From assembly GCA_900321255.1 (NCBI GenBank), contig ONVK01000001.1, positions 16,907 through 80,906 on the forward strand: a stretch of 64,000 bases of DNA, given 5' to 3'. Shown piece by piece: positions 1 through 58,360 of this stretch. Made by a program: the position numbers and the translations under genes. The notes beneath the pieces are model-generated. The model made no database searches. It saw nothing but the letters and a program-made list of their open reading frames with translations, and was not told the DNA's origin. Origin of the DNA: an uncultured Lentisphaerota bacterium (lineage in GTDB: Bacteria > Verrucomicrobiota > Kiritimatiellia > RFP12 > UBA1067). How positions within the stretch are numbered: position 1 is the first letter of the stretch; every line of letters starts with the position of its first letter.

Positions 1-165
1 GCGGAAACAGAATCGTCGTATGGGATTGCGACGAGGGCTCGTCTCCGAAAATAGGGGACATTGTCAGAGTGTCGATAACTGAGGCGCATCCCCAGATTTT
101 GCTTGGCAAAATCTCCCCCTTGCGCAACGGCACCGATTTTTGATATACTATGCGCACTTGATCGT

Positions 166-1716: not shown

Positions 1717-1746
1717 TTGCCGAGAGACCGTCCATAATGGTATAAT
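1717..1746 (+). promoter_or_regulatory. sigma70-type promoter (-35 TTGCCG, extended -10 TGGTATAAT)
   Basis: AT-rich TGGTATAAT at about 1738-1746 in a GC-rich background, with TTGCCG 18 bp upstream. The dCMP deaminase ATG lies 10 nt after the -10, implying a near-leaderless mRNA. Confidence 0.5.
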
Positions 1747-1755
1747 ATCAAACCA

Positions 1756-2238
1756 ATGGCCAAAAAGATCAAAGATCCGCGTCCAAGTTGGGACGAGTAC
1801 TTCATGGAGATCGCGACGGTCGTCTCGAAGCGCAGCAACTGCATGCGCAGGAGCGTCGGCGCGGTCGTGATGAAGGACAACCACATCCTCTCAACCGGCT
1901 ACAACGGCACTCCGCGCGGCGTCAAGAACTGCTTCGCCGGCGGCTGCCCGCGCTGCGCGGCAACGACGAAAAGCGGGACCCATCTCGAGGAATGCCTCTG
2001 CACCCACGCCGAGCAGAACGCGATCTGCCAGGCCGCCTACTATGGCAACTCCATCGCTGGCGGCACGATCTACATCACGATTTCTCCTTGCCTCACCTGC
2101 GCGAAGCTAATCATCAACTCCGGCATAAAGGAGGTTGTCTATGGCGGCGACTACGCCTTCATCGACAAGGTGAAGGAGATGTTCAAGGCGGCCGGGGTGA
2201 AGCACAGGAAGTTTAAAGTTCAAAGTTTAAAGTTATAA
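1756..2238 (+). CDS. comEB: deoxycytidylate (dCMP) deaminase
   Basis: CMP/dCMP deaminase zinc motifs CTHAEQNA and PCLTCAKLI, and N-terminal RPSWDEYFM typical of dCMP deaminase. Confidence 0.85.
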   Translation: MAKKIKDPRPSWDEYFMEIATVVSKRSNCMRRSVGAVVMKDNHILSTGYNGTPRGVKNCFAGGCPRCAATTKSGTHLEECLCTHAEQNAICQAAYYGNSIAGGTIYITISPCLTCAKLIINSGIKEVVYGGDYAFIDKVKEMFKAAGVKHRKFKVQSLKL

Positions 2239-5146: not shown

Positions 5147-5155
5147 TGCTATAAT
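5147..5155 (+). promoter_or_regulatory. putative trp leader promoter (extended -10 TGCTATAAT)
   Basis: GTGCTATAAT immediately upstream of the leader peptide ORF. No clear -35. Confidence 0.4.
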
Positions 5156-5224
5156 ATGCGGCACATGAGCAAGATCCTTACCAGCAACTTTTGGTGGTGG
5201 CACTTCGTCCGCAAGGCGTGGTGA
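5156..5224 (+). CDS. trpL: trp operon leader peptide with tandem Trp codons (MRHMSKILTSNFWWWHFVRKAW)
   Basis: Short ORF just upstream of trpE containing three consecutive TGG codons at 5192-5200 and a fourth at the last codon. An intrinsic terminator follows it. If transcription starts from the -10 at 5150-5155, the second ATG at 5165 would be a leaderless start. Confidence 0.6.
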   Translation: MRHMSKILTSNFWWWHFVRKAW

Positions 5225-5250
5225 TCGGGGTCTTTGTTCAATCCCCCCTG

Positions 5251-5296
5251 AAGGCGGCCTTGCTTCTTTGTAAGTAAGGCCGCTTTCTTTTATCTT
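5251..5296 (+). terminator. trp attenuator, intrinsic terminator
   Basis: GGCGGCCTT / AAGGCCGCC stem (5253-5261 and 5276-5283) followed by TTTCTTTTATCTT. A preceding G-run/C-run (5227-5230, 5243-5248) can form an alternative antiterminator pairing. Confidence 0.55.
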
Positions 5297-5326
5297 CAAA
5301 AATGAAATCAATCACATCATAGGAGA

Positions 5327-6724
5327 ATGCAAATGCTGAAGCAACTGACAAAAGAGGAATTCGAGCGGCGATGCGCCGGCGGAAGGCGCACGCCTGTCTT
5401 CCGCGAATATCTCGCCGACCGCGAGACGCCCGTCTCCGTGCTTACCCGCATAGTCGACGAGCCGAAGGACGTCTTTCTCCTCGAAAGCGTCTACAACGGC
5501 GAGCGCAAGGGGCGCTATTCGTACCTCGGCATCGACCCGGTCGAGACGCCCGATGCAAGGCCGTTCGCCGCCGCGCCCGAGCTCCCTTCGTTCCAGGGCG
5601 GACGCGTCGGATACTTCGCCTACGAGGCGGTGTCCGACTTCGAACCGCGCGTGCCGCGCCGCAGCGAGAAGGGGACGCCGTCCGAGGCGTTCATGACGGT
5701 CGACTCGTTTGTCGTGTTCGATGCGGTGCGCGACACGGCGGTGATCGCGAAAGTCGCGGCGAACGACGCGCCAGACGCCTACGAGCGGACGATGCGCGAG
5801 ATCGAGGCGCTCAGGGAGCGGCTTCTCTCGGCAGAGTCGATCGCGCGCTACGTCGGTAGCCGCGGCAGATCCGCCGCGCCGGCGCTTTCGGCGTTCGAGC
5901 CGGAGATGACGAAGGAGGAGTTCTGCGGAATCGTCGGGCGGTGCAAGGAGGCGATCGCCGCGGGCGAGGTCATCCAGATCGTCCCCTCGCAGAAATTCAC
6001 CGCGAAGACGGATATCCCGCCGCTCGCGCTCTACCGCGCCTTGCGGCTCGTGAATCCTTCGCCCTACAACTTCTTCCTCAGGGTCGGCGCGAAGACACTG
6101 ATCGGATCGTCGCCCGAGGAGCTGGTGCGATTGGAGAAGGGCGTCTGCTCCATCGCGCCAATCGCGGGAACGCGCCCGCGCGGCGTGACGCCGGAACTCG
6201 ACCGTGCGCTCGAGGCGGAGCTCCTCGCCGACCCGAAGGAGCGCGCCGAGCACATGATGCTCGTCGATCTCGCGCGGAACGACCTTGGCCGCGTTTCGAA
6301 GACCGGCACCGTCTCGGTGCGCGACCTTGCGCATGTCGAGCGCTATTCGCACGTGATGCACATCGTGTCGAACGTCTACGGCGAGCTTGATCCCGACAAG
6401 GCCGACGCGCTCGGGCTTTTCAAGGCGGCGTTCCCGGCGGGCACGCTCACAGGTGCGCCGAAGATCCGCGCGATGGAGCTTCTCGCCGAGTACGAAAAGT
6501 CTCCGCGCGGTGTATACGGCGGCGCGGCGGGGTACTTCAGCTACACCGGCGACATGGACTTCGCGATAGTGATCCGCACGATGGTTCTCGAGGACGGCGT
6601 TCTCACGATGCGCGCCGGCGCGGGAATCGTGGCGGACTCCGATCCCGCGAAGGAGTACCAGGAGACGATAAACAAGTCGAAGGCCGTCTTCCAGGCGGCG
6701 GAGTTCGCAAAGGAGCTTGTATGA
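5327..6724 (+). CDS. trpE: anthranilate synthase component I
   Basis: LVDLARNDLGRV and GAAGYFSYTGDMDFAIVIRT chorismate-binding motifs. AGGAG at 5321-5325; the second ATG at 5333 may be the true start. Confidence 0.95.
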   Translation: MQMLKQLTKEEFERRCAGGRRTPVFREYLADRETPVSVLTRIVDEPKDVFLLESVYNGERKGRYSYLGIDPVETPDARPFAAAPELPSFQGGRVGYFAYEAVSDFEPRVPRRSEKGTPSEAFMTVDSFVVFDAVRDTAVIAKVAANDAPDAYERTMREIEALRERLLSAESIARYVGSRGRSAAPALSAFEPEMTKEEFCGIVGRCKEAIAAGEVIQIVPSQKFTAKTDIPPLALYRALRLVNPSPYNFFLRVGAKTLIGSSPEELVRLEKGVCSIAPIAGTRPRGVTPELDRALEAELLADPKERAEHMMLVDLARNDLGRVSKTGTVSVRDLAHVERYSHVMHIVSNVYGELDPDKADALGLFKAAFPAGTLTGAPKIRAMELLAEYEKSPRGVYGGAAGYFSYTGDMDFAIVIRTMVLEDGVLTMRAGAGIVADSDPAKEYQETINKSKAVFQAAEFAKELV

Positions 6725-8280: not shown

Positions 8281-8924
8281 AGAGGGATGGAGTAAACATC
8301 ATCGCCGAGTTCAAGCGCGCGTCGCCGTCGCTTGGCGACATAGACGTCGCGGCCGATCCGGTCGCAAAGGCGAAGATATACGAATCGGGCGGAGCGGCCG
8401 CGATGTCGGTCCTCTGCGACGCCGCGCGGTTCAAGGGAAGCGTCGAGGACCTGCGGCGCGTCGCCGCGTCGGGCGCGAAGATCCCGCTTCTCGCCAAGGA
8501 CTTCATCTCGGAGAAGGAGCGTCTCCGCGAGGCGAAGGACGCGGGCGCGAGTGCGGCCCTGCTGATCGTGCGCTACCTTGACGACGAGAAGCTTTCAGAG
8601 CTTCTTGCCGAGGCGCGCTCGCTCGGGCTTGACGCGCTTGTCGAGACGCACAGCGAGGAGGAGATAAAGAGGGCGGTCGCAGTCGGCGCTGACATCATCG
8701 GCGTCAACTGCCGCGACCTTTCCAACTTCACGGTGGACGTGTCGATATCGGAGCGGCTGCTAAAGGCGATTCCGGACGGAATCGTCAAGGTCGCAGAGAG
8801 CGGCATCAAGACGAACGCCGACATCGCGCGGCTCAGGGCGGCGGGCGCGAACGCGTTCCTTATAGGAACTGCGCTTATGAAATCGCAAGACCCGGCAAAA
8901 CTGTTGTCGATTTTAACCATGTAG
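8259..8924 (+). CDS. trpC: indole-3-glycerol phosphate synthase (short form)
   Basis: NIIAEFKRASPS.G, LCDAARFKGS, and the IGVNCRDL and LIGTALMK motifs. Starts at an ATG inside the trpGD 3' end (22-nt overlap). The track ORF 7608..8924 is the same frame over-extended. Confidence 0.85.
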   Translation: MHFKDALKRDGVNIIAEFKRASPSLGDIDVAADPVAKAKIYESGGAAAMSVLCDAARFKGSVEDLRRVAASGAKIPLLAKDFISEKERLREAKDAGASAALLIVRYLDDEKLSELLAEARSLGLDALVETHSEEEIKRAVAVGADIIGVNCRDLSNFTVDVSISERLLKAIPDGIVKVAESGIKTNADIARLRAAGANAFLIGTALMKSQDPAKLLSILTM

Positions 8925-9038
8925 AACGTGTAGATCGTGTAGAAATCCTGCATGTTTCTACACGTTCTACACGGCTAATTATCTTCGACAAGAGGATTTC
9001 AATTACGACACTATTTTAAAATCGAAACGATCACAATC

Positions 9039-10235
9039 ATGAAAACGACGAAACATTATGGACCATACGGCGGACAGTACGTCGCCGAAACGCTGATGGG
9101 GCCGCTTAACGAACTTGCCGCGGCCTATCTCGAAGCGAAGGAGGACCCCGAGTTCCAGCGCGAATTCGCGGCTCTTCTCAAGGACTATGTCGGGCGCGAG
9201 TCGCCGATCACCGTCTGCAGGCGCTTGTCCGCGAAGCTCGGCGGCGCGACGATAGCCCTGAAGCGCGAGGACCTAAACCACACAGGCGCCCACAAGGTCA
9301 ACAACACGATCGGCCAGGCGCTGTTGGCTAAGCGCATGGGCAAGAAGCGGCTGATTGCGGAGACCGGCGCGGGGATGCACGGCGTCGCTACGGCGACGGT
9401 CGCCGCGCTTCTCGGAATGCCCTGCGAGGTCTACATGGGCGCGATAGACGTGAAGCGCCAGGCGCCGAATGTCGAGCGCATGAAGATGCTCGGCGCGACA
9501 GTCCACGCAATCGAGGAGGGCAGCGCGACATTGAAGGACGCGATGAACGAAGCTCTCCGCGACTGGGTCACGAACTGTGACGACACTTTCTACGTGATCG
9601 GGACGGCTGCCGGCCCCTATCCGTATCCCGAGATGGTGAAGGATTTCCAGTCCGTAATCGGACGCGAGGCGCGCCGCCAGTGCCTTGAGAAGTTCGGGCG
9701 TCTCCCCGACCAGGCGATCGCGTGCGTCGGCGGCGGGTCCAATGCCATCGGGCTCTTCGCCGGGTTCTTGGACGACGCGGGCGTAAAGCTCGTCGGCGTC
9801 GAGGCGGCTGGCAGGGGAATCGCGACGGGCGAGCACGCGGCGTCGATAAACGGCGGGCGGCTCGGCGTCCTGCACGGCGCCAAGACGATGCTGCTACAGA
9901 CAGCAGACGGCAACGTGATCGACACGTATTCCGTCTCGGCGGGTCTTGACTACCCGGGCGTCGGGCCGGAACACTGCTATCTCCACGACACGGGGCGCGC
10001 CGAATACTCGTCGATCACCGACGACGAGGCGATAGCCGCGTTCGACGACTTGTGCCGCTACGAGGGCATCATCCCCGCGCTCGAGTCGAGCCACGCGCTC
10101 GCGGAGGCGATAAAGCGCGCTCCGTCGCTTCCCAAGGAGACGATCCTCCTCGTGTGCCTCTCGGGGCGCGGCGACAAGGATCTCGAAAACATACTCGCAT
10201 ACAAGAAGAGCCGCTCTGCCGGCCAGGACATGTAA
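9039..10235 (+). CDS. trpB: tryptophan synthase beta chain
   Basis: [16 protein letters not shown] (PLP lysine), GGGSNAIG, and full-length TrpB similarity. Confidence 0.95.
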
Positions 10236-10292
10236 AACGCCTGCACGTTTCTGCACGTTCTACACGGCTAATGACATACAGGACGAAAAATC

Positions 10293-11623: not shown

Positions 11624-11848
11624 TGTATGATCTTTCAGACAGGATTAAGTGATTATGTTTTAGACAGGATTAACAAGATTAACAGGATTAAGAATTTTAG
11701 AATGGAGAACAGGAGATACAGGAGTTTTTGGAGGCGCCTTCGGCGCGGGGTCTGGGGTGCAACCCCAGTCTCCCTCCTGCCTCTCCTGTCCTACCTGCCA
11801 AAATCCTGTTAATCCTGTAAATCCTGTCAAAAAAAAGAAAGGTTAAAA

Positions 11849-15984: not shown

Positions 15985-16013
15985 TTGTCCAACGGAGGAA
16001 ATTGTGGTATAAT
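15985..16013 (+). promoter_or_regulatory. sigma70-type promoter (-35 TTGTCC, 17-bp spacer, TGGTATAAT)
   Basis: TTGTGGTATAAT ends 7 nt before the ATG at 16021, giving a leaderless or 1-2 nt leader. Confidence 0.5.
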
Positions 16014-16020
16014 CATTGAC

Positions 16021-16998
16021 ATGAAGATCAAGTTCATCGCCAACATCAAGGGGATATACCTTGGATATTCGTTTGAACCTTCCGATGTAGTGACCATTGG
16101 GCGCGAGATCGGAAATACCATTGCGCCGATAAACGTTGACGGCTTTTCGCGTCATCACGCGCGCATCTTCTTCAAGGACGGTGCATGGTATGTCGAAGAC
16201 GTCGGCAGCACGAACGGCACCTACCGCAACCGCGTGAAGGTCGAAGCCCCGACAAAGATCGAGAAGGGTGATTCGATCAGGTGCGGGCTAATGGAACTTG
16301 CCTCGTTTGAATTCGAACCCTCTGCCGCGCCCGCTCCTGTCACCGCGGCCGAGCCGCCGAAGCCGGTTGCACCGGTCAAGCCCACCGAGACAGTCAAGCC
16401 CATTGAGCCGCCGAAGCCCATTGCGCCGGTCAAGCCCATTGAACCGCCGAAGCCGGTTGCACCGGTCAAGCCAGTCGAGCCGCCAAAGACAGTCGCGCCT
16501 GTCAAGCCGGCGGAGCCAGTTGCCCAGCTTGAGCCAGTGACGCCGCTTGACCCCGTCACGCCTCTAGAACCCGTCGCGCCTCTAGAACCCGTCGCGCCGC
16601 TTGAGCCAGTGACGCCGCTTGAGCCAGTTGCCCAGCTTGAGCCAGTGACGCCGCTTGAGCCGATTACGCCGCTCGAGCCGATCACGCCGCTTGAACCGGT
16701 CGAGGAACTCAAGCCTGTTTCACCTGTGAAGACGGAGAAGGTCCCAACCCCTGTTGCCGCCCCGGCGACGCTTCGCCGTCCGACGATACCGGGGCTGAAG
16801 CCCGGCCTCAAGCCAGGGCTCAAGCTTCCCCAGAAGGGCGGGGCGCTCCCCGCCGGCCTGAAGCTCCCGCCCAAGGGAGGTGCGCTTCCGACGGGCCTCA
16901 AGCTTCCGCCAAAGGGGGGTGCGCTCCCGACGGGCCTCAAGCTTCCGCCCAAGCCCGGTCTCAAGCCCGGTCTCAAGGTCCCCGGCAAGGGCGTATGA
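16021..16998 (+). CDS. FHA-domain protein with proline-rich tandem-repeat tail
   Basis: An N-terminal 100 aa FHA fold ([24 protein letters not shown]). This is followed by repeats [18 protein letters not shown] (x10) and [13 protein letters not shown] (x3). Confidence 0.7.
16330..16990 (+). repeat. coding tandem repeats (three families: about 33-bp, 18-bp and 39-bp units)
   Basis: Directly visible periodicity in the DNA and in the translated PKPxAPVKP / LEPVTP / [13 protein letters not shown] units. Confidence 0.8.
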
Positions 16999-31991: not shown

Positions 31992-32000
31992 TGGTATAAT
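31992..32000 (+). promoter_or_regulatory. extended -10 promoter TGGTATAAT
   Basis: TTTTTGGTATAAT about 65 nt upstream of ORF 32066, which has an AAAAGGAGAAAC RBS. Confidence 0.45.
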
Positions 32001-32065: not shown

Positions 32066-32986
32066 ATGAGCGAGGAAAACATGAACGTCGGCGAAAACGC
32101 CGAAAACGCCGAAAACACCGGAAGCGCCGAGAACCTCGGAAGCGCCGAGAACGTCGGCAACACCGAGCGCAGCAATGCATCCAGGATCGTGACCGAGAAG
32201 ATCGGCGAATACAGCGGCAAGGTCGACGGCTGGGTCGAAGGCGCGCTTGGCGTCATCGGAAACCGCCCGTGGGATTCGTGGCTCGACACGGCGAATGGGT
32301 ACATCTCCAGGCTTCTGCCTGCGGTGATCGCCCTTGCCGGCATCCTCGCCTGCTTGACCGGCCTTGTTACCATGATAAAGGACGACGCCCCGTTTTCATT
32401 GGTCGTGAAGCAGCTTTTTGTCCTCGTCCCGGCGGTCTTTGCCATGCATCTTGCGCCAAAGGCCCTCGCGCTCGCGCGTTCGTTCATCGAGAAGGGCGAG
32501 CCCGCGGTCATCCGTCCCGAATTGATGTACATCATGAAAGTGGTGTGCGGAATCGGCGGGCTGATCCTCGGCGCGTACCTGCTTCTGAATTTCGACGGGG
32601 CTCTTGCGGTTCTTGCGATATCCGTGATAATCTTCGCCGTTCTGATGGTCATATGCCTTGAGCGTCCCGGCATCGTCGGCGTAAAGCCAGGGTATCCGGT
32701 CAACTGCGTCGAGGAGGTTATTGCGCTCGTGCTGTTCCCGATCAGGATGGTCATTGCGCTGCTCACCCTGCTCATCGGCATGGCGGCGGTTGGCGGTCTC
32801 GTCTACGGCGTTGTGCAGTGGTTTGACAGCGGAATGTACGCGGCGCTGGTGTTCGGCGCGACTGCGATCGTTCCGTTCGCGATTCCGCTTCTCGTCTATT
32901 TCCTCTATCTTGTCGTGGTGTTCACGCTTGATTTCTACAGGGCGATAGTCTCGATCCCGCGCAAGTTGGACGAGCTCAAGAAGTAG
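32066..32986 (+). CDS. hypothetical membrane protein with N-terminal ENAEN repeat
   Basis: 306 aa with an acidic N-terminal repeat (ENAENAENTGSAENLGSAENVGNTE) encoded by 9/18-bp tandem DNA repeats, followed by at least 6 TM segments. Confidence 0.5.
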   Translation: MSEENMNVGENAENAENTGSAENLGSAENVGNTERSNASRIVTEKIGEYSGKVDGWVEGALGVIGNRPWDSWLDTANGYISRLLPAVIALAGILACLTGLVTMIKDDAPFSLVVKQLFVLVPAVFAMHLAPKALALARSFIEKGEPAVIRPELMYIMKVVCGIGGLILGAYLLLNFDGALAVLAISVIIFAVLMVICLERPGIVGVKPGYPVNCVEEVIALVLFPIRMVIALLTLLIGMAAVGGLVYGVVQWFDSGMYAALVFGATAIVPFAIPLLVYFLYLVVVFTLDFYRAIVSIPRKLDELKK

Positions 32987-33015: not shown

Positions 33016-35022
33016 ATGGCAAGACTCCTGGACGACGTATATCTCAAGCCGTTTGAGGCGGCGATACGCGGGCGCGCGCAGCATGCCTTCGACCGGGCGC
33101 GCGAACTTACGGCGGGCAAGTGCTCTCTCGCCGACTGGGCCTCTGCGCACGAATACTACGGCCTCCACCGCACGAAGCGCGGGTGGGTGTTCCGCGAATG
33201 GGCGCCGAATGCGACGAGCATGTGGCTCGTCGGTGACTTCTCCAAGTGGAAGATCGACCCCCGCTTCGAGTGCTTCAGGATCCCCAGGACCGACGTCTGG
33301 CAGTGCAAGGTCGCCGCGGGGCTTATCAAGAAGGGCGACAACTACCGTCTTGAAATGCGCTGGGAAGGGGGGCACGGCGAGCGGATCCCCGCGTATGCGC
33401 GCTACGTCGTTCAGGATCCCGAGACCAACCTCTTCTGCGCGCAGGTCTACGAGTCGAAGTACAAGTGGCGCCACCCGTCTCCAACGACCAAGCTCAAGAC
33501 GCCGTTCATCTACGAGGCGCATGTCGGCATGGGCGGCGAGGAGGAGCGTGTCCACACCTACGCGGAGTTCCGCGACAACGTGCTTCCGCGCGTGAAGAAG
33601 GCCGGCTACAACGTCGTCCAGCTCATGGCGATCATGGAGCATCCGTACTACGGCTCCTTCGGCTACCACGTCAGCTCCTTCTTCGCCGCGTCCTCTCGCT
33701 TCGGCACGCCCGACGATCTCAAGTCGCTTGTCGACACCGCGCACGGCATGGGTCTCCGCGTCATCATGGACCTCGTCCATTCGCACGCGGTCAAGAACGA
33801 GCGCGACGGCCTCTCGCTATTCGACGGAACAGACTACCAGTACTTCCATTCCGGCGCCAAGGGGTGGCACAGCGCGTGGGACAGCCGCTGCTTCGACTAC
33901 GGGAAGACCGACGTCATACACTTCCTCCTCTCGAACTGCCGCTTCTGGCTCGACGAATACCGCTTCGACGGCTACCGCTTCGACGGCGTGACCTCCATGC
34001 TTTTCTGGAACCACGGCCTGGGCGATGCGTTCACGAACTACGGCATGTACTTCAACGGATCCGTCGACGACGACGCGTGGGCATACCTCCAGATGGCGAA
34101 CCGCGTCATCCACGAGTCGCATCCCGGCGCGATCACGATCGCCGAGGACGTCTCTGGGATGCCGGGCGTCGCCGCGGGCGCGAAGGACTGCGGCATTGGC
34201 TTCGACTACCGCATGGCGATGGGCGAGCCGGACTTCTGGTTCCGCCTTGCGGAGAAGGTGCGCGACGACGACTGGCCGATGGACGGGATATTCTGGGAGC
34301 TCACGAACAAGCGCGCCGAGGAGAAGGTCGTCTCCTACGTCGAGTCGCATGACCAGGCGCTCGTCGGCGGCAAGACGTTTTTCTTCCAGCTTGCCGACGC
34401 CGCTGTCTACTTTGGCATGGCCAAGGGGCAGCACGGCATCGAGACCGACCGCGCGGTCGCGCTCCACAAGATGGCGCGTCTCGCGACGGCCGCGCTCAAC
34501 GGCGGCGCGTACCTCAACTTCATGGGCAACGAGTTCGGCCACCCCGAGTGGATCGACTTCCCGCGCGCGGAGAACGGCTGGAGCTACCACCACGCCAGGC
34601 GCCTGTGGTCGCTGAGGGACGATCCGAACCTGCGCTTCAAGGGGCTCGCAGACTTCGACGAGACGATGCTTTCGGAGCTGAAGAAGTCGCGCGCGCTCTT
34701 CGGCGGCGGCGCGAGCGCGATCCCGACAAAGCTCGTGGCAAACGAGCCTGACAAGGTGCTTGCGTTCGTGCGCGGCGACATGCTTTTCGTCTTCAACTTC
34801 AATCCGGTGAAGTCGTTCGAGGACTACGGCGTGATAGTGCCGCCGGCGTCCGACTGGAAGCACGTCTTCGACACCGACGAGCCGAGGTTCGAAGGCCAGG
34901 GCCGCATCATGCCGGGGATGACTTATTCCCCGTCGCTCGTCCTCGACCGCGGCGAGCTCATCCAGCAGATAAAGCTCTATCTCCCTGCACGGACCGCGAT
35001 TGTCTTAAGGCGGACAATTTGA
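33016..35022 (+). CDS. glgB: 1,4-alpha-glucan branching enzyme (GH13)
   Basis: GH13 catalytic regions DLVHSH, YRFDGYRFDGVTSML, FMGNEFGHPEW and YVESHDQA. Confidence 0.9.
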   Translation: MARLLDDVYLKPFEAAIRGRAQHAFDRARELTAGKCSLADWASAHEYYGLHRTKRGWVFREWAPNATSMWLVGDFSKWKIDPRFECFRIPRTDVWQCKVAAGLIKKGDNYRLEMRWEGGHGERIPAYARYVVQDPETNLFCAQVYESKYKWRHPSPTTKLKTPFIYEAHVGMGGEEERVHTYAEFRDNVLPRVKKAGYNVVQLMAIMEHPYYGSFGYHVSSFFAASSRFGTPDDLKSLVDTAHGMGLRVIMDLVHSHAVKNERDGLSLFDGTDYQYFHSGAKGWHSAWDSRCFDYGKTDVIHFLLSNCRFWLDEYRFDGYRFDGVTSMLFWNHGLGDAFTNYGMYFNGSVDDDAWAYLQMANRVIHESHPGAITIAEDVSGMPGVAAGAKDCGIGFDYRMAMGEPDFWFRLAEKVRDDDWPMDGIFWELTNKRAEEKVVSYVESHDQALVGGKTFFFQLADAAVYFGMAKGQHGIETDRAVALHKMARLATAALNGGAYLNFMGNEFGHPEWIDFPRAENGWSYHHARRLWSLRDDPNLRFKGLADFDETMLSELKKSRALFGGGASAIPTKLVANEPDKVLAFVRGDMLFVFNFNPVKSFEDYGVIVPPASDWKHVFDTDEPRFEGQGRIMPGMTYSPSLVLDRGELIQQIKLYLPARTAIVLRRTI

Positions 35023-35028
35023 TATAAT
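35020..35028 (+). promoter_or_regulatory. extended -10 promoter TGATATAAT for tRNA-Lys
   Basis: TTTGATATAAT 19 nt upstream of the tRNA 5' end. Confidence 0.45.
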
Positions 35029-35122: not shown

Positions 35123-35765
35123 CCTCCGAAAGTTGACGGTTGATAGGTGCGCTTCCGTCGCGCGGTTTAGCCGTGTAGAGGTGTAGAGGGGGAGAGTTTG
35201 TAACGCAGAGGCGCGTGCGCGGAGGGGATATTTCGGCTTAAGGCTAAAAATCGCCGCGCCGCCCGATGGCTCGCCCTCGCTTTCGCTTCGGGTTGGCTCG
35301 TGCACCGCACGAGCCACCGACAAGCGGCGGTTACCGCGGGGCTCTCGTTCGGCTACAGGGTCGCGACGGCTCTCACACATCAGACAATTAACCGAGTTTA
35401 GCCATAACCGCCGCGCAAGCGGGGCTCGCGTTTTGTAGCGAGCCAAGCCGAGCGAAGCGAGTGCCGAGCCGTGCCTCGGCGCATATCACTGGTTGCGTAC
35501 GCAAGTCACTCTTACGCCTGCGACCTTCCGCCTGCCTCACCCGCGACCATCGGCTCGGCTTGGCGATAGCCATGCGGCAGAAAACGCATTGCGCCAAAAC
35601 ACGCCCCACCGCGCACGCGCCTTGACTTTCCCCGCCGCTACGCCGACTCTGATCTGCCCCTAATCGACCCTAAACATTACTAATCCGACCTTGCCGCTCG
35701 TGCGCGGCAAATCTGCCGAGATTTATATTTTGCAAAATCTTGCCACTCTACCATGAGTGGTTTTG

Positions 35766-35774
35766 TGGTATAAT
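35766..35774 (+). promoter_or_regulatory. orphan extended -10 promoter TGGTATAAT
   Basis: The 15-mer TTTTGTGGTATAATA is identical to the one at 36154-36168. No ORF in the 390 nt downstream. The perfect palindrome ATTTTGCAAAAT lies at about -43 to -32. Confidence 0.4.
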
Positions 35775-36138
35775 ACCGAACGGCAGAGGGAAAGGATAGT
35801 GTCTGTGTTCTCGGCTTTGGCATTCCGGCGCAGGCCGGGAGTCGCCTCGGCGACGTTATGAGCGACCTAGGCGCGGTCTGCACCGCGACGCGGCCCGGCG
35901 AGTGTCGCGAATACCGAGCGGCGAGAGCTCGAAGAGCGGAGTCGACGCGTTCGCCCGAGGCGAGCTGCCCGGCCGGAGCCGGACTTGCAGGCGGCAATCG
36001 GCGAAGGAGTGTTTCGGCGCGACGATTGGAGGGCGCAAGAATCGCGCCACAAGAAGGCAAATCGCGCGCGTCCGCTTAGCCCGGCACGAGCACAGGCGAA
36101 AAATCGTGAAACTCCAGCGCCTATGTCGCCTATGTCGG

Positions 36139-36166
36139 TGACCGATTGGGGATTTTGTGGTATAAT
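36139..36166 (+). promoter_or_regulatory. promoter (-35 GTGACC, TGGTATAAT)
   Basis: The -10 ends 7-8 nt before the ATG at 36174, giving a leaderless start for the DUF1080 lipoprotein. Confidence 0.5.
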
Positions 36167-36173
36167 AGTGCGC

Positions 36174-37136
36174 ATGAACACGAAAATACTCTCTACGTTG
36201 GCGGCGGGGCTTGCCCTCGCCGGGTGCTGCACATGCGACTTCGGCGTCGATCCCAAGGATCCGGTCGTCGGCAACTGGGGCCTCAAGCTCGGCTACGAGA
36301 GCATGAACGCCGGCCACATGATCGTCTCGCGCGACGCGGACGGCAAGGCGCAGGCGCTTGTCCTCTGGCGCTGGGCTTCTCCGATACCGATGAACAACGT
36401 CGTCGTTGACGGCGGCAAGATCACGTTCGACCATCCGTGGGGCTTCAAGTTCGAGGGTGCTGTCAACGGCAACGAGCTTGTGGCAACCGCGACAAAGAAG
36501 GACGGCAAGGTCGAGACGACCGTCACCGGCTGGCGCAACCCCGTCATCAAGCCCGCGTCGACGAAGGACGCGAAGCTCGGCGAGCCGATCGATCTCCTTG
36601 CCGACGGCCTCGACGGCTGGAAACTGATGGACGAGAAGGCCAAGAACGGCTGGAAGTTCAAGGACGGCGTGCTTTCAAACGAGCTCGGCCTCAAGCCCGA
36701 CGGCTCCTGGGCGGGCGGCGGCGCAAACCTCATGTCGAAGCGCACCGACTTCTACGACTTCAACCTCGAGTACGACGTTCGCGTGCCGAAGAAGTCCAAT
36801 TCGGGTGTATATCTCCGCGGCCGCTACGAGTGCCAGGTGCTCGACAGCTACGGCCAGCCCGTGAACGAGCACAACATGGCCGCCTACTACGGCCGCGTCG
36901 TGCCGAAGGTCGCCGCCGAGAAGCCCGCGGGCGAGTGGCAGCACGTCTCCGTCACGCTCTACAAGCGCCATCTCACCGTCGTCCTCAACGGCGTCACCAT
37001 CATCGAAGACGCGCCTGTCGTCGGCATCACCGGCGGCGCGATCGACGCGAACGAGTTCGTGCCCGGCCCCATCTATCTCCAGGGCGACCACTCCGACGCG
37101 GACTTCAAGAACATGATCCTTCGCCCCGCGAAGTAG
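36174..37136 (+). CDS. DUF1080 (3-keto-disaccharide hydrolase-like, LamG fold) lipoprotein
   Basis: Lipoprotein signal MNTKILSTLAAGLALAGC. C-terminal VYLRGRYECQVLDSY...GPIYLQGDHS...FKNMIL is the DUF1080 signature. The track ORF 35985..37136 is over-extended upstream. Confidence 0.7.
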   Translation: MNTKILSTLAAGLALAGCCTCDFGVDPKDPVVGNWGLKLGYESMNAGHMIVSRDADGKAQALVLWRWASPIPMNNVVVDGGKITFDHPWGFKFEGAVNGNELVATATKKDGKVETTVTGWRNPVIKPASTKDAKLGEPIDLLADGLDGWKLMDEKAKNGWKFKDGVLSNELGLKPDGSWAGGGANLMSKRTDFYDFNLEYDVRVPKKSNSGVYLRGRYECQVLDSYGQPVNEHNMAAYYGRVVPKVAAEKPAGEWQHVSVTLYKRHLTVVLNGVTIIEDAPVVGITGGAIDANEFVPGPIYLQGDHSDADFKNMILRPAK

Positions 37137-37886: not shown

Positions 37887-37913
37887 CCCCCTTGCGTTCG
37901 CAAGGGGGTTTTT
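37887..37913 (+). terminator. intrinsic terminator
   Basis: CCCCCTTG-CGTTCG-CAAGGGGG hairpin followed by TTTTT. The U-tract overlaps the TTTTGG of the next promoter. Confidence 0.6.
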
Positions 37914-37921
37914 GGTATACT
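37913..37921 (+). promoter_or_regulatory. extended -10 promoter TGGTATACT for tRNA-Ala/tRNA-Arg
   Basis: TTTTTGGTATACT 20 nt upstream of tRNA-Ala. Confidence 0.45.
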
Positions 37922-42560: not shown

Positions 42561-43376
42561 ATGACCGATTTGTCCGAAATCCTCGATGGTGTCCGCGGCA
42601 AGATCGCCGCGGCGTGTGCGCGTGTCGGACGCGACCCTAACGAAGTCGAAATCGTCGCCGTCACCAAGACCCACGGCGCGGAGGTAGTGAAGGAGGCGTG
42701 GGACGCCGGGCTTACGATCGTCGGCGAAAACAAGGTGCAGGAGGCGGCGTGGAAAAAGCCAGCGAGCGTCTCCGGTCCGTCGTGGCACCTGATAGGCCAC
42801 CTCCAGTCGAACAAGGTTCGCCACGCGCTTGAGATCTTCGACTTCATCCACTCCGTCGATTCGATAAAGCTCGCGGACAGGATCAACTTCATTGCCGACG
42901 AAATCGGCGCGTCGCCACATATCCTTCTTGAAGTAAACGTCTCCGGCGAGAAGTCGAAGAGCGGCATGAAGCCAGAAGAGGTCGAGCCGACCATCAAGCA
43001 CATCGTCGAGTCGTGCCCACGAATCACTCTTGAGGGGCTTATGACTATGGCTCCGTTTAGCGAGAATCCCGAAGACGCGAGGCCGTATTTCCGCAGGCTG
43101 CGCGAGATGCGCGACGACCTCGAGTCGCGGCTTGGCGTCGGGCTTCCGCGCCTTTCGATGGGTATGAGCGGAGACTACGAAGTCGCCGTCGAGGAAGGCG
43201 CGACATGGGTCAGGCTTGGCACGGTGCTCTTTGGCGAGAGGCCAAAGGTCAAGCGTGTCGCCGCGTCGGAGGGCGACGACGGCACGACGCCGGGCGGCGA
43301 CACCGATACATACGCTGGCTTCGGCGGCCTTGATTCTTACTCTGGCGCCGGCCCGACGGCCAAAGTGCTGGACTGA
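42561..43376 (+). CDS. yggS: YggS-family pyridoxal-phosphate homeostasis protein
   Basis: VAVTKTH (PLP lysine), HLIGHLQSNK and LSMGMSGD motifs. Has an unusual roughly 40-aa Gly/Asp-rich C-terminal extension. Confidence 0.8.
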   Translation: MTDLSEILDGVRGKIAAACARVGRDPNEVEIVAVTKTHGAEVVKEAWDAGLTIVGENKVQEAAWKKPASVSGPSWHLIGHLQSNKVRHALEIFDFIHSVDSIKLADRINFIADEIGASPHILLEVNVSGEKSKSGMKPEEVEPTIKHIVESCPRITLEGLMTMAPFSENPEDARPYFRRLREMRDDLESRLGVGLPRLSMGMSGDYEVAVEEGATWVRLGTVLFGERPKVKRVAASEGDDGTTPGGDTDTYAGFGGLDSYSGAGPTAKVLD

Positions 43377-45946
43377 TGTTCCCAGTTGAAGAGAAGATAG
43401 ATGATATTCGTCGCGCGCTCGCGGCGAACAGGGATGTTGTCCTCACTGCGCCTCCCGGAAGCGGCAAGACTACTTGCGTGCCGCCGGCGCTCTTGGATGA
43501 GCCGTGGCTTGTGGGCAAGAAGATCGTCATGCTTGAACCGCGGCGGCTTGCCGCGCGCAACTGCGCGGCCTACATCGCGCGTAGACGCGGCGAGGCGGTT
43601 GGAGGCACCGTCGGCTACCAGGTGCGGCTTGAGCGCAAGATTTCCGCGGCAACGCGGCTTGAGATCGTGACGGAAGGGCTGCTCACTCAGCGTCTTCTTT
43701 CAGACCCGGAGCTTTCGGATGTCGGGCTCGTGATCTTCGATGAATTCCACGAGCGCTCGCTCCCCTGCGACACCGCGTTTGCGCTCGCGCTCGAAGTGCG
43801 ACGTGCGCTTAGGCCGGATCTTCGCATCCTTGTCATGTCAGCGACGCTCGACGCCGATGAAGTCGCCGCGCATCTCGGTGACGCCGACATCATTCGCGCC
43901 GAAGGGCGCATGTTTCCTGTTGAGACAAATTACCTTGGCGACATGTCGATGACGGCGGCGATATCGAAGGCACTGAAGGAAACGGATGGCGACATGCTTT
44001 GCTTTCTGCCGGGAGAGGGCGAGATAAGGCGCGTGCAGGAGGCGGTTGGCGCAGTGCGCGATGTCGATGTTCTTCCGCTCTACGGCAGTCTCCCCAAGGA
44101 AGAGCAGGACAGGGTATTTGAGCGCGGCGGACGGCGCAAGGTCATTCTCGCTACGTCGATCGCCGAGACTTCGGTTACGATCGAGGGCATTTCGACGGTG
44201 ATCGACTCGGGGCTTATGCGTGTGCCGCGCTTTCGCCCTGCGTCCGGGATGTCGGGGCTTGTGACTTTGCCGCTCACGCAAGACCGCGCAGAGCAGCGCA
44301 GAGGTCGCGCGGGGCGCTTGCGCGCGGGAGTTTGCTATCGGCTCTGGAGCGAGGGCGAGCAGCAGTCGCGTCCAAAGAAGATGATGCCAGAGATACTTGA
44401 CGCCGACCTTTGCTCGCTCGTTCTGACAAGCGCGGCGTGGGGTGCGCTTGGGCGCGAGGATCTGCCGTGGATGACACCGCCACCTGCGTCGAACTGGGAT
44501 CAGGCGGTAGGGCTTCTCAAGATGCTTGGTGCGCTTGATGGCGACGGACGGCTCACGAAGAAGGGCGAGGCGATGGCGAAGCTCCCGATGCATCCAAGGT
44601 TGGCGAATATGGTGATTGGTGGTAGCCGTATAGAAGGGGTTGGTGAGGCGTCGCTGCTGGCGGCGATTGTAGAAGAGGGGAATAGAAGCCGCGAGACGGA
44701 TATTAGGAAGATTGCCGAGGAGATCAGGGAGACGCCGAACCGTCCGTTTTCGAAAAGGGTGCTTCAGTTGGCACGGCGGTTTAACAAAGGGTCAGACCCC
44801 TCTGACACAGTAGCTGATACAGCTAAAGCTGCAATCAGCTACTGCAGTCAGAAAGGTCTGACCCTAGAAGGCTCTCTTCTTGCGCTTGCGTATCCTGACA
44901 GGGTTGCGAAGAACCGGGGAAATGGAACGTTCCGCATGGTGTCTGGGCGCGGCGCATTCCTCGACCAGTCCGATCCGCTTGCGAAGTCGCCTTATCTCGT
45001 CTGCTGCGAGCTCGACGACCGCGCGGGCGATGCGAAGGTCTTTCTTGGCTGTCCCATTGGCGAGGACGAGATCGAAGACCTCTTCGGCGATCGCATAACC
45101 GAGGAGCCGTACTGCGCGTGGGACAGGCAGAACGACCGCGTGAAGAGCGTCGTTCGCCGCAAGCTTGGCGAGATGACCCTTGGGGAGAAGCCGCTCTCGG
45201 CGGCAGACTCGCGCCACTCGGTGGACGTCGACGCAAGGATATCGGCGGCGCTTCTTGATGGCATTCGCCAGAAGGGAGTCGAGAATCTTCCCTGCTGGAC
45301 GAAGGAGTCGCGGCAATTCCGCGCAAGAATGGCGTTTTTGTCGCGGGTTTCTGGAAAAGGGTCAGACCCCTCTGACACAGTAACTGACACAGCTAAAGCT
45401 GCAGTCAGCTACTGCAGTCAGAAGGGTCTGACCCTAGACGCCAATAAAAATGGGGGTGAGTGGCCAAATCCAACTGATGGGGCGATTCTTGCCGCGTTGC
45501 CTGGTTTCATCGGCGGGATGACGAAGTGGAAGGATTTGGAGCGGCTTGACCTCTTTTCGGTCTTTGACTTTATGCTCGCGGAAGCGGGGCATGATAGGCG
45601 CGAGCTCGATCGTCTTGCGCCTACGCGCATGGAGGTTCCGAGCGGCAGCCACATGCTGATTCACTACGAGGGTGACGAACCGACGTGCGAAGTGCGGCTT
45701 CAGGAATGTTTCGGGCTTATGGAGACGCCGAAGGTCGCAGGCGGGAAAGTTCCTGTCGTAATGACGCTTCTTTCGCCTGCACAGCGGCCAATCCAGATAA
45801 CGAAAGACCTTGCGGGATTCTGGCGAGAAGGGTACCAGCTTGTCCGCAAGGACATGCGTGGCCGCTACCCGAAGCACTATTGGCCGGAAGACCCGTTCAC
45901 CGCCGTCGCGACACGTCGCACCGTCAAGCGTGCTGGCCAGGCCTGA
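43376..45946 (+). CDS. hrpB: ATP-dependent RNA helicase HrpB (with two in-frame 27-codon palindromic insertions)
   Basis: DEAH-box helicase motifs (GSGKTT, DEFHER, SAT), the HA2 and C-terminal HrpB domains. 856 aa versus about 809 typical; the excess is accounted for by two copies of KGSDPSDTV.DTAKAA.SYCSQKGLTL. Confidence 0.85.
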   Translation: MFPVEEKIDDIRRALAANRDVVLTAPPGSGKTTCVPPALLDEPWLVGKKIVMLEPRRLAARNCAAYIARRRGEAVGGTVGYQVRLERKISAATRLEIVTEGLLTQRLLSDPELSDVGLVIFDEFHERSLPCDTAFALALEVRRALRPDLRILVMSATLDADEVAAHLGDADIIRAEGRMFPVETNYLGDMSMTAAISKALKETDGDMLCFLPGEGEIRRVQEAVGAVRDVDVLPLYGSLPKEEQDRVFERGGRRKVILATSIAETSVTIEGISTVIDSGLMRVPRFRPASGMSGLVTLPLTQDRAEQRRGRAGRLRAGVCYRLWSEGEQQSRPKKMMPEILDADLCSLVLTSAAWGALGREDLPWMTPPPASNWDQAVGLLKMLGALDGDGRLTKKGEAMAKLPMHPRLANMVIGGSRIEGVGEASLLAAIVEEGNRSRETDIRKIAEEIRETPNRPFSKRVLQLARRFNKGSDPSDTVADTAKAAISYCSQKGLTLEGSLLALAYPDRVAKNRGNGTFRMVSGRGAFLDQSDPLAKSPYLVCCELDDRAGDAKVFLGCPIGEDEIEDLFGDRITEEPYCAWDRQNDRVKSVVRRKLGEMTLGEKPLSAADSRHSVDVDARISAALLDGIRQKGVENLPCWTKESRQFRARMAFLSRVSGKGSDPSDTVTDTAKAAVSYCSQKGLTLDANKNGGEWPNPTDGAILAALPGFIGGMTKWKDLERLDLFSVFDFMLAEAGHDRRELDRLAPTRMEVPSGSHMLIHYEGDEPTCEVRLQECFGLMETPKVAGGKVPVVMTLLSPAQRPIQITKDLAGFWREGYQLVRKDMRGRYPKHYWPEDPFTAVATRRTVKRAGQA
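44786..44866 (+). repeat. 81-bp near-perfect palindromic element inserted in-frame in hrpB (copy 1)
   Basis: AAAGGGTCAGACC...CTGACACAGTAGCTGAT-ACAGCTAAAGCTGCA-ATCAGCTACTGCAGTCAG...GGTCTGACCCTAG. Arms are mutually complementary; 27 codons. Confidence 0.8.
45356..45436 (+). repeat. 81-bp palindromic element inserted in-frame in hrpB (copy 2, same orientation, 570 bp downstream)
   Basis: About 94% identical to copy 1 and encodes the same 26-27 aa peptide. Confidence 0.8.
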
Positions 45947-48266: not shown

Positions 48267-48339
48267 TCCCTGTAGACTCAGCTTGTGTCACACGCCGAGC
48301 ACCATGCCCGGACGTCACAGACTGAAATGAGTGCCGCAT

Positions 48340-48348
48340 ATTATACCA
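48340..48348 (-). promoter_or_regulatory. extended -10 promoter TGGTATAAT for metK (minus strand)
   Basis: The reverse complement of ATTATACCA reads TGGTATAAT, about 67 nt upstream of the metK ATG. Confidence 0.45.
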
Positions 48349-48598: not shown

Positions 48599-48690
48599 AA
48601 GTTGGCGGTGGAGCGAAGGTCCGAGCGAGGGGATACGGCGTATTCGCCGAGGGTTCCCCGAGGAGGAGCCTTCGGACGCCGCCAACAAGC
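48599..48690 (+). repeat. 92-bp palindromic repeat element, copy A
   Basis: About 95% identical to the reverse complement of 55701-55792. Terminal inverted repeats (C)TTGTTGGCGGTGG / CCACCGCCAACAAG and central palindrome CGGCGAATACGCCG. Confidence 0.8.
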
Positions 48691-48723: not shown

Positions 48724-48732
48724 TGGTATAAT
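48724..48732 (+). promoter_or_regulatory. extended -10 promoter TGGTATAAT for hydG
   Basis: ATTATGGTATAAT about 47 nt upstream of the hydG ATG. Confidence 0.45.
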
Positions 48733-50209: not shown

Positions 50210-50234
50210 GAGTCGCCTTGAAGCCGTTATTTTT

Positions 50235-50243
50235 GATATAATA
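50235..50243 (+). promoter_or_regulatory. extended -10 promoter TGATATAAT for V-ATPase genes
   Basis: TTTTTGATATAAT ends 7 nt before the ATG at 50251, giving a leaderless start. Confidence 0.45.
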
Positions 50244-50250
50244 CTACGCA

Positions 50251-50859
50251 ATGGCCAAGGTCAAGCTAACGAAGACGGAACTGAAGGCGCAGTCTGACGC
50301 CCTAAAGCGGTTTCAGCGCTTTCTGCCGATGCTGCAGCTGAAGAAACAGCAGCTGCAGAGCGAGATCGCCGGCATTGTCGCGAAGGCCGAGTCTGTGTCC
50401 GCGCGCGAGCGAGAGGTCCGCTCGGAGCTCGATAGCTGGGTAGGGCTGATCGCTACGGACGAGGAGCTGCTTTCAGGGCTTGTGTCTGTTAAGTCCGTCA
50501 AAACCGGCACCGCCAACATCGCGGGCGTCGCGATTCCGACTTTCGAGTCGATCGACACCGATGTGAAGGATATCGACGCATGGGCGACCCCCGCGTGGAT
50601 CGACGACGCTGTGGCGGTTACGACCCAGATACTCTCCCTCCAGTGCGAGCGCAGGGTCTATGAAGAGCAGCGGAGGCTTGTCCAGGAGGAGCTTCGCCAG
50701 ACCTCGCAGCGCGTAAACCTCTTCGAGAAGGTCAAGATCCCCCAGTGCAAGGAGGCGATCCGCGTAATCAAGATCGCGCTCGGCGACGAGCAGACGGCCG
50801 CCGTCACGCGCGGCAAGATCGCGAAATCGCGCGCTCCCGAAAGCGAGGTGGCGGCATGA
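50251..50859 (+). CDS. atpD: V-type ATP synthase subunit D
   Basis: N-terminus MAKVKLTKTELKAQSDALKRFQRFLPMLQLKKQQL is a typical V/A-ATPase D-subunit coiled coil. Confidence 0.8.
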   Translation: MAKVKLTKTELKAQSDALKRFQRFLPMLQLKKQQLQSEIAGIVAKAESVSAREREVRSELDSWVGLIATDEELLSGLVSVKSVKTGTANIAGVAIPTFESIDTDVKDIDAWATPAWIDDAVAVTTQILSLQCERRVYEEQRRLVQEELRQTSQRVNLFEKVKIPQCKEAIRVIKIALGDEQTAAVTRGKIAKSRAPESEVAA

Positions 50860-55700: not shown

Positions 55701-55792
55701 ACTTGTTGGCGGTGGCCGAAGGCTCCTCCTCGGGGAGCCCTCGGCGAATACGCCGTATCCCCTCGCTCGGACCTTTGCTCCACCGCCAACAA
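55701..55792 (-). repeat. 92-bp palindromic repeat element, copy B (inverted relative to copy A)
   Basis: Begins 2 nt after the GDPD stop codon, ends about 35 bp before the rplY promoter, and is followed by the hairpin AATTCGC-TCTTGC-GCGAATT. Confidence 0.8.
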
Positions 55793-55806: not shown

Positions 55807-55836
55807 TTGCGCGAATTGGGCCAGTTTTGGTATAAT
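55807..55836 (+). promoter_or_regulatory. promoter (-35 TTGCGC, 18-bp spacer, TGGTATAAT) of the ribosomal protein cluster
   Basis: AGTTTTGGTATAAT, with a 75-nt leader before the L25 ATG. Confidence 0.5.
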
Positions 55837-58253: not shown

Positions 58254-58283
58254 TTGACCCCCGAGGGGCAGTTTTGGTATACT
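58254..58283 (+). promoter_or_regulatory. promoter (-35 TTGACC, 18-bp spacer, TGGTATACT) of nusA-infB
   Basis: A clear -35/-10 pair immediately after the rplI terminator. Confidence 0.55.
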
Positions 58284-58360
58284 ACAAAAGCTTTTTCGGC
58301 GGTTCGGATGGACCGTACCGGAGGGTGTGTTTTGATTTTTGACAAAAAAGGAGAGTTGAA

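Follow-up and report, generated by a model that had tools for sequence, protein, structure and literature searches.

A short A/T-rich box close to TGnTATAAT stands at 14 places in a stretch of 64,000 nucleotides, the window of this analysis, from an uncultured Lentisphaerota bacterium of the Kiritimatiellia (GenBank assembly GCA_900321255.1, contig ONVK01000001.1, positions 16,907 to 80,906 of the forward strand). Judging from the sequence, these boxes are very probably extended -10 promoters of the sigma-70 type, and five of the 14, among them the focal one ahead of a gene for an FHA-domain protein, would give leaderless or near-leaderless mRNAs. The five are as follows, in window coordinates.

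15985-16023, plus strand: promoter of the FHA-protein gene, with TTGTCC at 15985-15990, a 17-bp spacer, TGGTATAAT at 16005-16013, the 7-nt spacer cattgac and ATG at 16021-16023
1717-1758, plus strand: promoter of comEB (dCMP deaminase), with TTGCCG at 1717-1722, an 18-bp spacer, TGGTATAAT at 1738-1746, a 9-nt spacer and ATG at 1756; putatively near-leaderless
5147-5224, plus strand: promoter and leader open reading frame (ORF) of the trp operon, with TGCTATAAT at 5147-5155, a 9-nt spacer and the ORF at 5165-5224, encoding MSKILTSNFWWWHFVRKAW and a stop
36158-36176, plus strand: promoter of a gene for a DUF1080/3-keto-disaccharide-hydrolase lipoprotein, with TGGTATAAT at 36158-36166, the 7-nt spacer agtgcgc and ATG at 36174; putatively leaderless
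50234-50253, plus strand: promoter of the V-ATPase operon, with TGATATAAT at 50234-50242, the 8-nt spacer actacgca and ATG at 50251 (subunit D); putatively leaderless or with a 1-nt leader

The exact box, TGNTATAAT, has 11 matches on the two strands of the window, whereas dinucleotide-shuffled versions average 0.09 and never exceed 2. When one mismatch is permitted, 18 matches are found against 5.8 expected; two of these, at 52007 and 38143, both lie within coding sequence and look like chance. A first-pass annotation of the same DNA had listed about 14 recurring sites, all intergenic and correctly oriented. All 14 are present, 11 with exact TATAAT and three (141-149, 37913-37921 and 58275-58283) with TATACT, and the coordinates given for them are right at 13; the V-ATPase site was placed 1 nt off, at 50235-50243 instead of 50234-50242. 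Their placement and direction are also as described: each of the 14 falls in the 6.8% of the window outside coding or RNA calls and points toward the next gene or tRNA, and the sole overlap with a gene is at 35020-35022, the TGA stop codon of the upstream coding sequence. The identities proposed for the genes were upheld by Pfam, which assigns dCMP deaminase, TrpE, FHA, DUF1080/3-keto-disaccharide hydrolase, MetK, HydG-like radical SAM, V-ATPase D and L25. TG lies one base 5' of the hexamer at 14 of 14 sites, and all hexamers retain T at -12, A at -11 and T at -7. Nine of the boxes precede a tRNA, whose mature 5' end lies 16-20 nt after the box, or a leader of 40-80 nt, often with a Shine-Dalgarno sequence; the other five precede an ATG by 7-9 nt.

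The box was followed beyond the window in related genomes. NusA of the window is 100% identical to NusA of the rumen metagenome-assembled genome (MAG) RUG12088, with which the window shares 98% nucleotide identity across 11 kb, and the next-best 79 genomes by NusA, all MAGs from the guts of ruminants, horses and humans, are annotated as Kiritimatiellia/Kiritimatiellae. The clade sample consists of ~1.16 Mb of nusA-linked loci from these 79 related species, and since their synteny is confined to the nusA-infB block, it serves as a quasi-random sample of their genomes. Window and loci together hold 141 exact copies, 129 of which (91%) are in the ~8% of the DNA that is non-coding or lie at most 30 nt from the 5' edge of a gene. 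A downstream gene is present for 125 copies, and 122 of these point the same way as that gene. In intergenic DNA alone, 101 copies are observed where a first-order Markov model expects 1.5 (~65-fold), and motifs permuted from the same eight letters average 2.9 copies there, with 13 at most. The first-pass annotation had made its promoter reading depend on intergenic enrichment, and this enrichment is found across the 79 related species. With 52-53% GC, intergenic DNA lies below the 62% of the genome, which might suggest that the pattern is a matter of chance or a compositional artefact of AT-rich intergenic DNA. However, the excess over expectation and over the permuted motifs, together with an orientation of 122 to 3, refutes this explanation, and we leave it next to no probability.

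The anatomy of the clade sites resembles that of a promoter. A T stands two bases ahead of TG in 86% of them, with A/T flanks, so that the consensus becomes TnTGnTATAAT with G as the commonest middle base; an A/T-rich stretch usually lies just upstream, and leadered sites prefer C and then A at positions 6 and 7 after the box. TTG at a spacer of 17-18 bp is found at 35 of 138 clade sites and hardly at all at other spacings, 18 bp being preferred where a -35 is present. In the leaderless class it accompanies 5 of 56 sites, but the non-leaderless class is inflated by orthologous nusA promoters and the contrast in -35 frequency between the classes is only indicative. Seven of the 14 window sites (tRNA-Asn, comEB, FHA, tRNA-Lys, tRNA-Ala, rplY and nusA) carry TTGnnn at 17-18 bp. 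The earlier statement that a -35 is poorly conserved except at ribosomal and nusA sites agrees with its being a minority feature across the clade, but was incorrect in confining it to those sites.

Conservation at orthologous loci points in the same direction. In ~75 species, the orthologous nusA promoter retains TTGAC and TnTGnTAnnAT, separated by a variable spacer of 17-18 bp; the sequence of the spacer changes freely, the hexamer drifts only within TAnnnT, and TG is kept at most of these promoters. This sequence pattern is the one expected of a primary sigma-70-type promoter. TG is also kept at the orthologous FHA, comEB and trp-leader promoters. The motif could instead be the site of an alternative sigma factor or of a global DNA-binding regulator, or a dispersed repeat, and its conservation is indeed unusually near one exact 9-mer for a genome of 62% GC that has other dispersed intergenic repeats in the window. 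However, the box serves tRNA, tmRNA, ribosomal protein, nusA-infB, metK and biosynthetic genes alike, as a primary sigma factor would; the flanks of the sites share no homology, and the drift of the nusA hexamer within TAnnnT is that of a -10 box. Such an alternative site or repeat is very improbable. The promoter reading of the first-pass annotation is therefore supported by position and orientation in the window, by the intergenic enrichment and by conservation at the nusA, FHA, comEB and trp-leader orthologues.

The five boxes next to start codons were examined one by one. The first-pass annotation had noted that the -10 ends only a few nucleotides before the ATG at these genes, and the gaps are 9, 9, 7, 7 and 8 nt after 1746, 5155, 16013, 36166 and 50242, respectively. 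No GGAG, GAGG or AGGA is found in the intervening atcaaacca, atgcggcac, cattgac, agtgcgc and actacgca, in keeping with the absence of Shine-Dalgarno sequences that had been foreseen. The start codons themselves hold up. In comEB, an in-frame TAA (1735-1737) lies directly ahead of the box and the deaminase domain runs from residue 11, so ATG 1756 is the start; an orthologue in another species (locus L085) retains TGGTATACT, 8 nt and the ATG behind an unrelated upstream flank. For V-ATPase D, the box itself contains an in-frame TAA (50239-50241), which leaves no start upstream of the ATG, and the Pfam family ATP-synt_D begins at residue 10. The start of the DUF1080 protein is fixed by its N-terminus, MNTKILSTLAAGLALAGC, which is a lipoprotein signal peptide ending in LAGC; an exact-sequence look-up of this protein returned no record.

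The FHA gene offers the richest comparison. Its promoter is a 10-of-12 match with TG extension in a consensus promoter scan, and its ATG is the one used in public gene calls. In rumen metagenome contigs, orthologues with 80-100% identity in the FHA domain provided 29 distinct upstream regions, and all 29 have TGnTATAAT 7, 9 or 10 nt before the ATG. The TTG of the -35 is also kept among them. Conservation of the protein sets in precisely at the ATG; ahead of it, the spacer sequences diverge and the flanks belong to different genomic contexts. Coding cannot extend upstream, since spacers of 7, 9 and 10 nt do not keep the reading frame. In three more distant orthologues (~50% identity), TGGTATAAT lies 37-40 nt upstream and the ATG is preceded by GGAG; these are a leadered version of the gene. 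The FHA protein also has a long Pro-rich tail (16371-16953) built from 18-nt and 39-nt tandem repeats (PVxPLE and a 12-residue unit).

These data bear on the possibility that the boxes are promoters of ordinary leadered mRNAs whose true start codons lie downstream of the adjacent ATGs. The starts in MAGs are predictions only, and the FHA and DUF1080 ORFs stay open upstream of the proposed ATG. However, a later start would truncate the Pfam domains of comEB (residue 11 onward) and V-ATPase D (residue 10 onward), in both of which an in-frame stop lies inside or just before the box; the DUF1080 protein begins with a lipoprotein signal peptide, the FHA orthologues are conserved from exactly the proposed ATG with frame-breaking spacers, and box-adjacent ATGs open canonical N-termini in 49 families of the clade. 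Downstream starts are likewise very improbable.

The 49 families come from a survey of the leaderless arrangement in the clade sample. Among 133 exact sites, ATG occurs at spacers of 6, 7, 8 and 9 nt after the box in 12, 22, 11 and 10 cases (55 of 133), and spacers of 10-59 nt have mostly 0-5 each with a maximum of 7. Spacer 0 also gives 11 ATGs, which reflects the frequent A after the box, and only 2 of these 11 open a long ORF; an ORF of at least 100 codons is opened by 48 of the 55 peak ATGs. A broader search, which admitted ATG or GTG at spacers of 5-10 nt with an ORF of at least 60 codons, likewise found 55 sites, belonging to 49 unrelated protein families with canonical N-termini. Examples are LepA (MTTLENIRNFCIIAHVDHGKTT) and adenylate kinase (Adk; MNIVILLGAPGSGKGT), and further families are Obg, TrpS, HtpG and GpsA, along with many signal peptides beginning MKK. 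Genes were called with our own self-trained codon-usage model, which replaced a length-greedy caller that chose shadow ORFs. A strong -10 lies 5-9 nt before the candidate start in 61 of 891 genes; for in-frame ATG/GTG codons inside genes the figure is 0.18%. TAnnnT by itself, at a distance of 6-9 nt, is present at 9.3% of genes against 1.8% expected, rising to 13% where the gap to the preceding gene is 25 nt or more or the neighbour on that side is divergent. From these gene calls, the leaderless share is estimated at ~9% of genes and 41% of exact-consensus promoters. Of all genes, 61-66% have a Shine-Dalgarno-like 4-mer ahead of them, compared with 12.5% of control codons, and about a third have none; the Shine-Dalgarno share of Kiritimatiellae has been listed as 63% (PMC10783764). 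Since TAnnnT-adjacent genes and the 61-66% of Shine-Dalgarno genes are both present, leaderless and Shine-Dalgarno initiation would coexist in these genomes. The leaderless or near-leaderless reading put forward earlier for the five genes is thus supported by the ATG peak at 6-9 nt, by the 49 protein families and by the five genes taken singly, as far as sequence can tell.

The proportion of genes without a Shine-Dalgarno-like 4-mer also invites another view, in which the boxes beside start codons are A/T-rich, unstructured translation-initiation elements on longer mRNAs, similar to the non-Shine-Dalgarno signal of Bacteroidota. In its favor, co-directional genes end 63 and 41 nt ahead of the FHA and V-ATPase D genes, respectively, and no terminator lies in either gap. 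However, the identical 11-nt motif, with TG and the T two bases upstream, occurs 16-20 nt before the 5' ends of tRNAs, where translation is irrelevant, and 40-80 nt before Shine-Dalgarno-led genes. The motif has the sequence of the sigma-70 consensus, and the ATG spacing of 6-9 nt fits start-site selection. In distant orthologues of FHA and of the trp leader, moreover, the box has moved upstream and GGAG appears. Translation elements of this kind are the least improbable of the alternatives, although still very unlikely.

From the enrichment, position, orientation and spacing of the motif, its conservation among orthologues and the validity of the start codons, we infer a sigma factor, a start nucleotide and a route of translation for the extended -10 promoters. 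The boxes would be the -10 region of primary sigma-70/RpoD-type promoters in the extended form TnTGnTATAAT. Sigma regions 2.4 and 3.0 contact the -10 hexamer and the TG extension in characterised systems; here, the RNA polymerase holoenzyme would be placed mainly through these two DNA elements, and a weak TTGnC -35 at 17-18 bp would help the RpoD holoenzyme at a minority of promoters only. Transcription would start ~7-8 nt downstream of the final T of the box, for which the tRNA 5' ends at 16-20 nt and the C and then A preference of leadered sites give indirect support. Spacers of 6-7 (possibly 8) nt would then put +1 on the A of the ATG, and spacers of 9-10 nt would leave a leader of 1-3 nt. 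The transcripts of comEB, the trp leader peptide, FHA, the DUF1080 lipoprotein and V-ATPase D would begin with the AUG or carry at most ~3 nt before it, and because so little precedes the AUG, these five mRNAs would make no use of a Shine-Dalgarno sequence. In studied bacteria, ribosomes recognise the 5'-terminal AUG of leaderless mRNAs together with formylmethionyl-tRNA (fMet-tRNA) and initiation factor 2 (IF2). Translation would follow this leaderless route here, by a ribosome with fMet-tRNA and IF2 on the 5'-terminal AUG.

Several points weigh against this scheme. The start nucleotide is deduced from spacing alone, and at comEB and the trp leader, with spacers in the 9-10 nt class, a leader of 1-3 nt appears more likely than a strict 5'-AUG, a case for which the first-pass annotation had left room. 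The short co-directional gaps before FHA and V-ATPase D, with no terminator visible between the genes, mean that both may also be carried on read-through transcripts with long leaders lacking a Shine-Dalgarno sequence. The layouts at V-ATPase D and DUF1080 have no comparative support: no orthologue of TrpE, V-ATPase D or DUF1080 was present in the loci fetched up to the synteny search, and none of V-ATPase D, HydG or L25 in the 79 nusA-linked loci, as only the nusA-infB block is syntenic. Start-codon usage is uninformative, since ATG opens 55 of 59 leaderless genes (93%) and 335 of 382 Shine-Dalgarno genes (88%), proportions that are not distinguishable.

The trp leader would link this architecture with a regulatory function. 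Downstream of the leader ORF, which has three consecutive Trp codons and a C-terminal Trp, lies a terminator.

5250-5297, plus strand: intrinsic terminator of the trp attenuator, with a 16-bp stem at 5250-5287 followed by a T-run, upstream of trpE (5327-6724)

The terminator is followed by a Shine-Dalgarno sequence and trpE, and the leader has a fold z-score of -4.4. The region 5165-5297, a Trp-codon leader ORF and an intrinsic terminator ahead of trpE, thus has the layout of a trp attenuator and is predicted to act as one. A possible antiterminator (-15 kcal/mol) is modelled in which 5213-5217 and 5225-5230 pair with a region including the 5' arm of the terminator. A W-rich leader peptide is found upstream of trpE in 5 of 5 other species (TrpE 68-89% identity). 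The box stands 7-10 nt before its start codon in three of the five (one of them GTG), or 4 of 6 when the window is counted, and in the other two the peptide has a longer leader with a Shine-Dalgarno-like sequence. A 42-nt repeat occupies two intergenic gaps of the trp operon (8938-8979, after a gene ending at 8924, and 10231-10272, after trpB), and three loci on other contigs (L013, L094 and L096) contain its 22-nt core as well.

Extended -10 (TGn) sigma-70 promoters are said to have been described in Escherichia coli by Keilty and Rosenberg in 1987 and by Barne and coworkers in 1997, and TRTGn '-16 region' promoters in Bacillus and other Gram-positives reportedly by Voskuil and Chambliss in 1998. 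The boxes of the window share with these the TG one base 5' of a TATAAT-like hexamer, the TnTG preference (86% here) and a -35 that is often weak or absent. They differ in that the full 9-mer is unusually frequent, with 11 exact copies among an estimated ~18 transcription-unit heads in 64 kb, and in that the preferred -35 spacer is 18 bp and not 17.

For the leaderless subset, the closest framework is group C of GeneMarkS-2, whose genomes have a Pribnow box ~10 nt from the start of first operon genes (6-8 nt in Mycobacterium tuberculosis); they are mostly Actinobacteria and Deinococcus-Thermus, with leaderless transcription at 25-50% of transcripts (PMC6028130). As in group C, a -10 box lies 6-9 nt before the ATG of many first genes while other genes are Shine-Dalgarno-led. 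However, the box here is a full TGnTATAAT compared with the degenerate TAnnnT of high-GC Actinobacteria and Deinococcus, the leaderless share from our own gene calls (~9% of genes, 13% of gapped or divergent ones, 41% of exact-consensus promoters) is at or below 25-50%, and the lineage, Kiritimatiellia of the Planctomycetes-Verrucomicrobia-Chlamydiae (PVC) superphylum, is absent by name from the main text of that paper. In the same superphylum, Cappable-seq of Akkermansia muciniphila found TATAAT and -35 elements and 10% leaderless start sites (PMC4782308). This member of the Verrucomicrobiota is also gut-associated and has leaderless transcripts alongside sigma-70-like promoters, but it belongs to a different class and its start sites were mapped, whereas ours are known from sequence. 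Attenuator leader peptides from leaderless transcripts are known in Deinococcus deserti, including that of trpEGD with a transcription start 1 nt before the AUG (PMC4007540). The trp leader of the window is similar in having a short Trp-rich ORF 9 nt after a -10 box and an intrinsic terminator before trpE, conserved in relatives. It differs in the phylum, in its three consecutive Trp codons plus a C-terminal Trp, and in that some relatives have a Shine-Dalgarno-led leader peptide.

No start-site or promoter study of Kiritimatiellia was found in the literature searched, which was limited to open-access papers, so its absence there is not proof. The arrangement thus appears to be a known layout, housekeeping promoters with a leaderless subset, in a lineage where it is apparently undescribed, and involves no new mechanism. 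We lean slightly towards the wider view that rumen and gut Kiritimatiellia are an unrecognised leaderless-rich PVC lineage. In such a lineage, a near-invariant, mostly -35-less TnTGnTATAAT would start transcription on the AUG in roughly one-in-six to one-in-three transcription units, attenuator leader peptides included, and FHA and trpL would have switched repeatedly between leaderless and Shine-Dalgarno-led forms. The immediate gain is a concrete promoter model for an uncultured and abundant rumen and gut lineage: TnTGnTATAAT, optionally preceded by TTGnC at 17-18 bp. Gene-start prediction in such MAGs must allow leaderless genes if it is not to misplace starts and overlook short leader peptides. 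The leaderless group C architecture would also be extended in the PVC superphylum beyond Akkermansia, and the FHA and trp-leader families would provide natural pairs of leaderless and Shine-Dalgarno-led genes for studying how initiation modes interconvert.

The nine remaining boxes of the window are the following.

120-149, plus strand: promoter of tRNA-Asn/tmRNA, with TTGCGC at 120-125, an 18-bp spacer and TGATATACT at 141-149; mature tRNA from 166
31992-32000, plus strand: promoter of a gene at 32066-32986 (no Pfam family), TGGTATAAT, 65 nt from box to ATG; leadered, with an AAGGAG Shine-Dalgarno sequence
35000-35028, plus strand: promoter of tRNA-Lys, with TTGTCT at 35000-35005, a 17-bp spacer and TGATATAAT at 35020-35028; tRNA from 35047
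35766-35774, plus strand: orphan box, TGGTATAAT, within a ~1-kb non-coding stretch (35123-36157)
37892-37921, plus strand: promoter of tRNA-Ala/tRNA-Arg, with TTGCGT at 37892-37897, an 18-bp spacer and TGGTATACT at 37913-37921; tRNA from 37942
48340-48348, minus strand: promoter of metK, TGGTATAAT, 73 nt from box to ATG 48266, implying a 5' untranslated region of ~66 nt
48724-48732, plus strand: promoter of a HydG-like radical SAM gene, TGGTATAAT, 46 nt from box to ATG 48779
55807-55836, plus strand: promoter of rplY (L25), with TTGCGC at 55807-55812, an 18-bp spacer and TGGTATAAT at 55828-55836, 75 nt to ATG 55912
58254-58283, plus strand: promoter of nusA-infB, with TTGACC at 58254-58259, an 18-bp spacer and TGGTATACT at 58275-58283; ATG at 58361

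tRNA-Asn and tmRNA (166-618) are 25 nt apart with no promoter in between, and the box at 141-149 probably serves both in one transcript; an Rfam 'permuted tmRNA' match overlapping both looks spurious. At tRNA-Lys, the TG of the box belongs to the TGA stop of the coding sequence 33016-35022. Over the whole window, Rfam (gathering score and E<=1) returned tRNAs and tmRNA, one weak sub-threshold small RNA match (P6, E=0.077) and no riboswitch or leader family matching the metK, rplY, nusA or orphan leaders. The stretch 35123-36157 around the orphan box has neither a coding signal nor an Rfam match, the 370 nt after the box (35781-36150) give no sign of a structured RNA (fold z-score -0.82), and a 20-codon GTG ORF downstream of it is unconvincing. 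The 5' untranslated region of metK (48267-48339, minus strand) shows no obvious Shine-Dalgarno sequence and matches no Rfam riboswitch, and could contain an S-adenosylmethionine-responsive element not yet described. The intergenic gap between metK and hydG contains a further one-mismatch match to the box, at 48426 on the minus strand. The nusA leader is a conserved ~75 nt with an AAGGAG Shine-Dalgarno sequence ahead of ATG 58361. A hairpin (cggcgatcc...ggtcgaaccg), a ttgatttttgaca box and AAGGAG are seen at 58284-58360 and at the same position in the related loci L008-L086 (~75 species), and this leader, with no Rfam family match, is a candidate autoregulatory leader.

Further repeats occur in the window. 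A 225-nt gap precedes pheA (chorismate mutase/prephenate dehydratase), and there, in the region 11640-11840, repeated caggattaa/cctgt units flank a GC-rich palindrome; the gap has no consensus extended -10. An 89-nt inverted repeat pair with 96% complementarity (48601-48689 and 55702-55790) brackets the 7-kb segment with hydG and the V-ATPase genes, each copy ~35 nt upstream of a promoter (hydG and rplY), and a partial copy exists in another species (L008); it is a possible dispersed element similar to repetitive extragenic palindromes or miniature inverted-repeat transposable elements (REP/MITE-like), or an inversion substrate. An 83-nt direct repeat with 95% identity (44786-44868 and 45356-45438), whose copies are internally palindromic, lies inside the long ORF 43376-45946, which has an unusually low coding score for its length.

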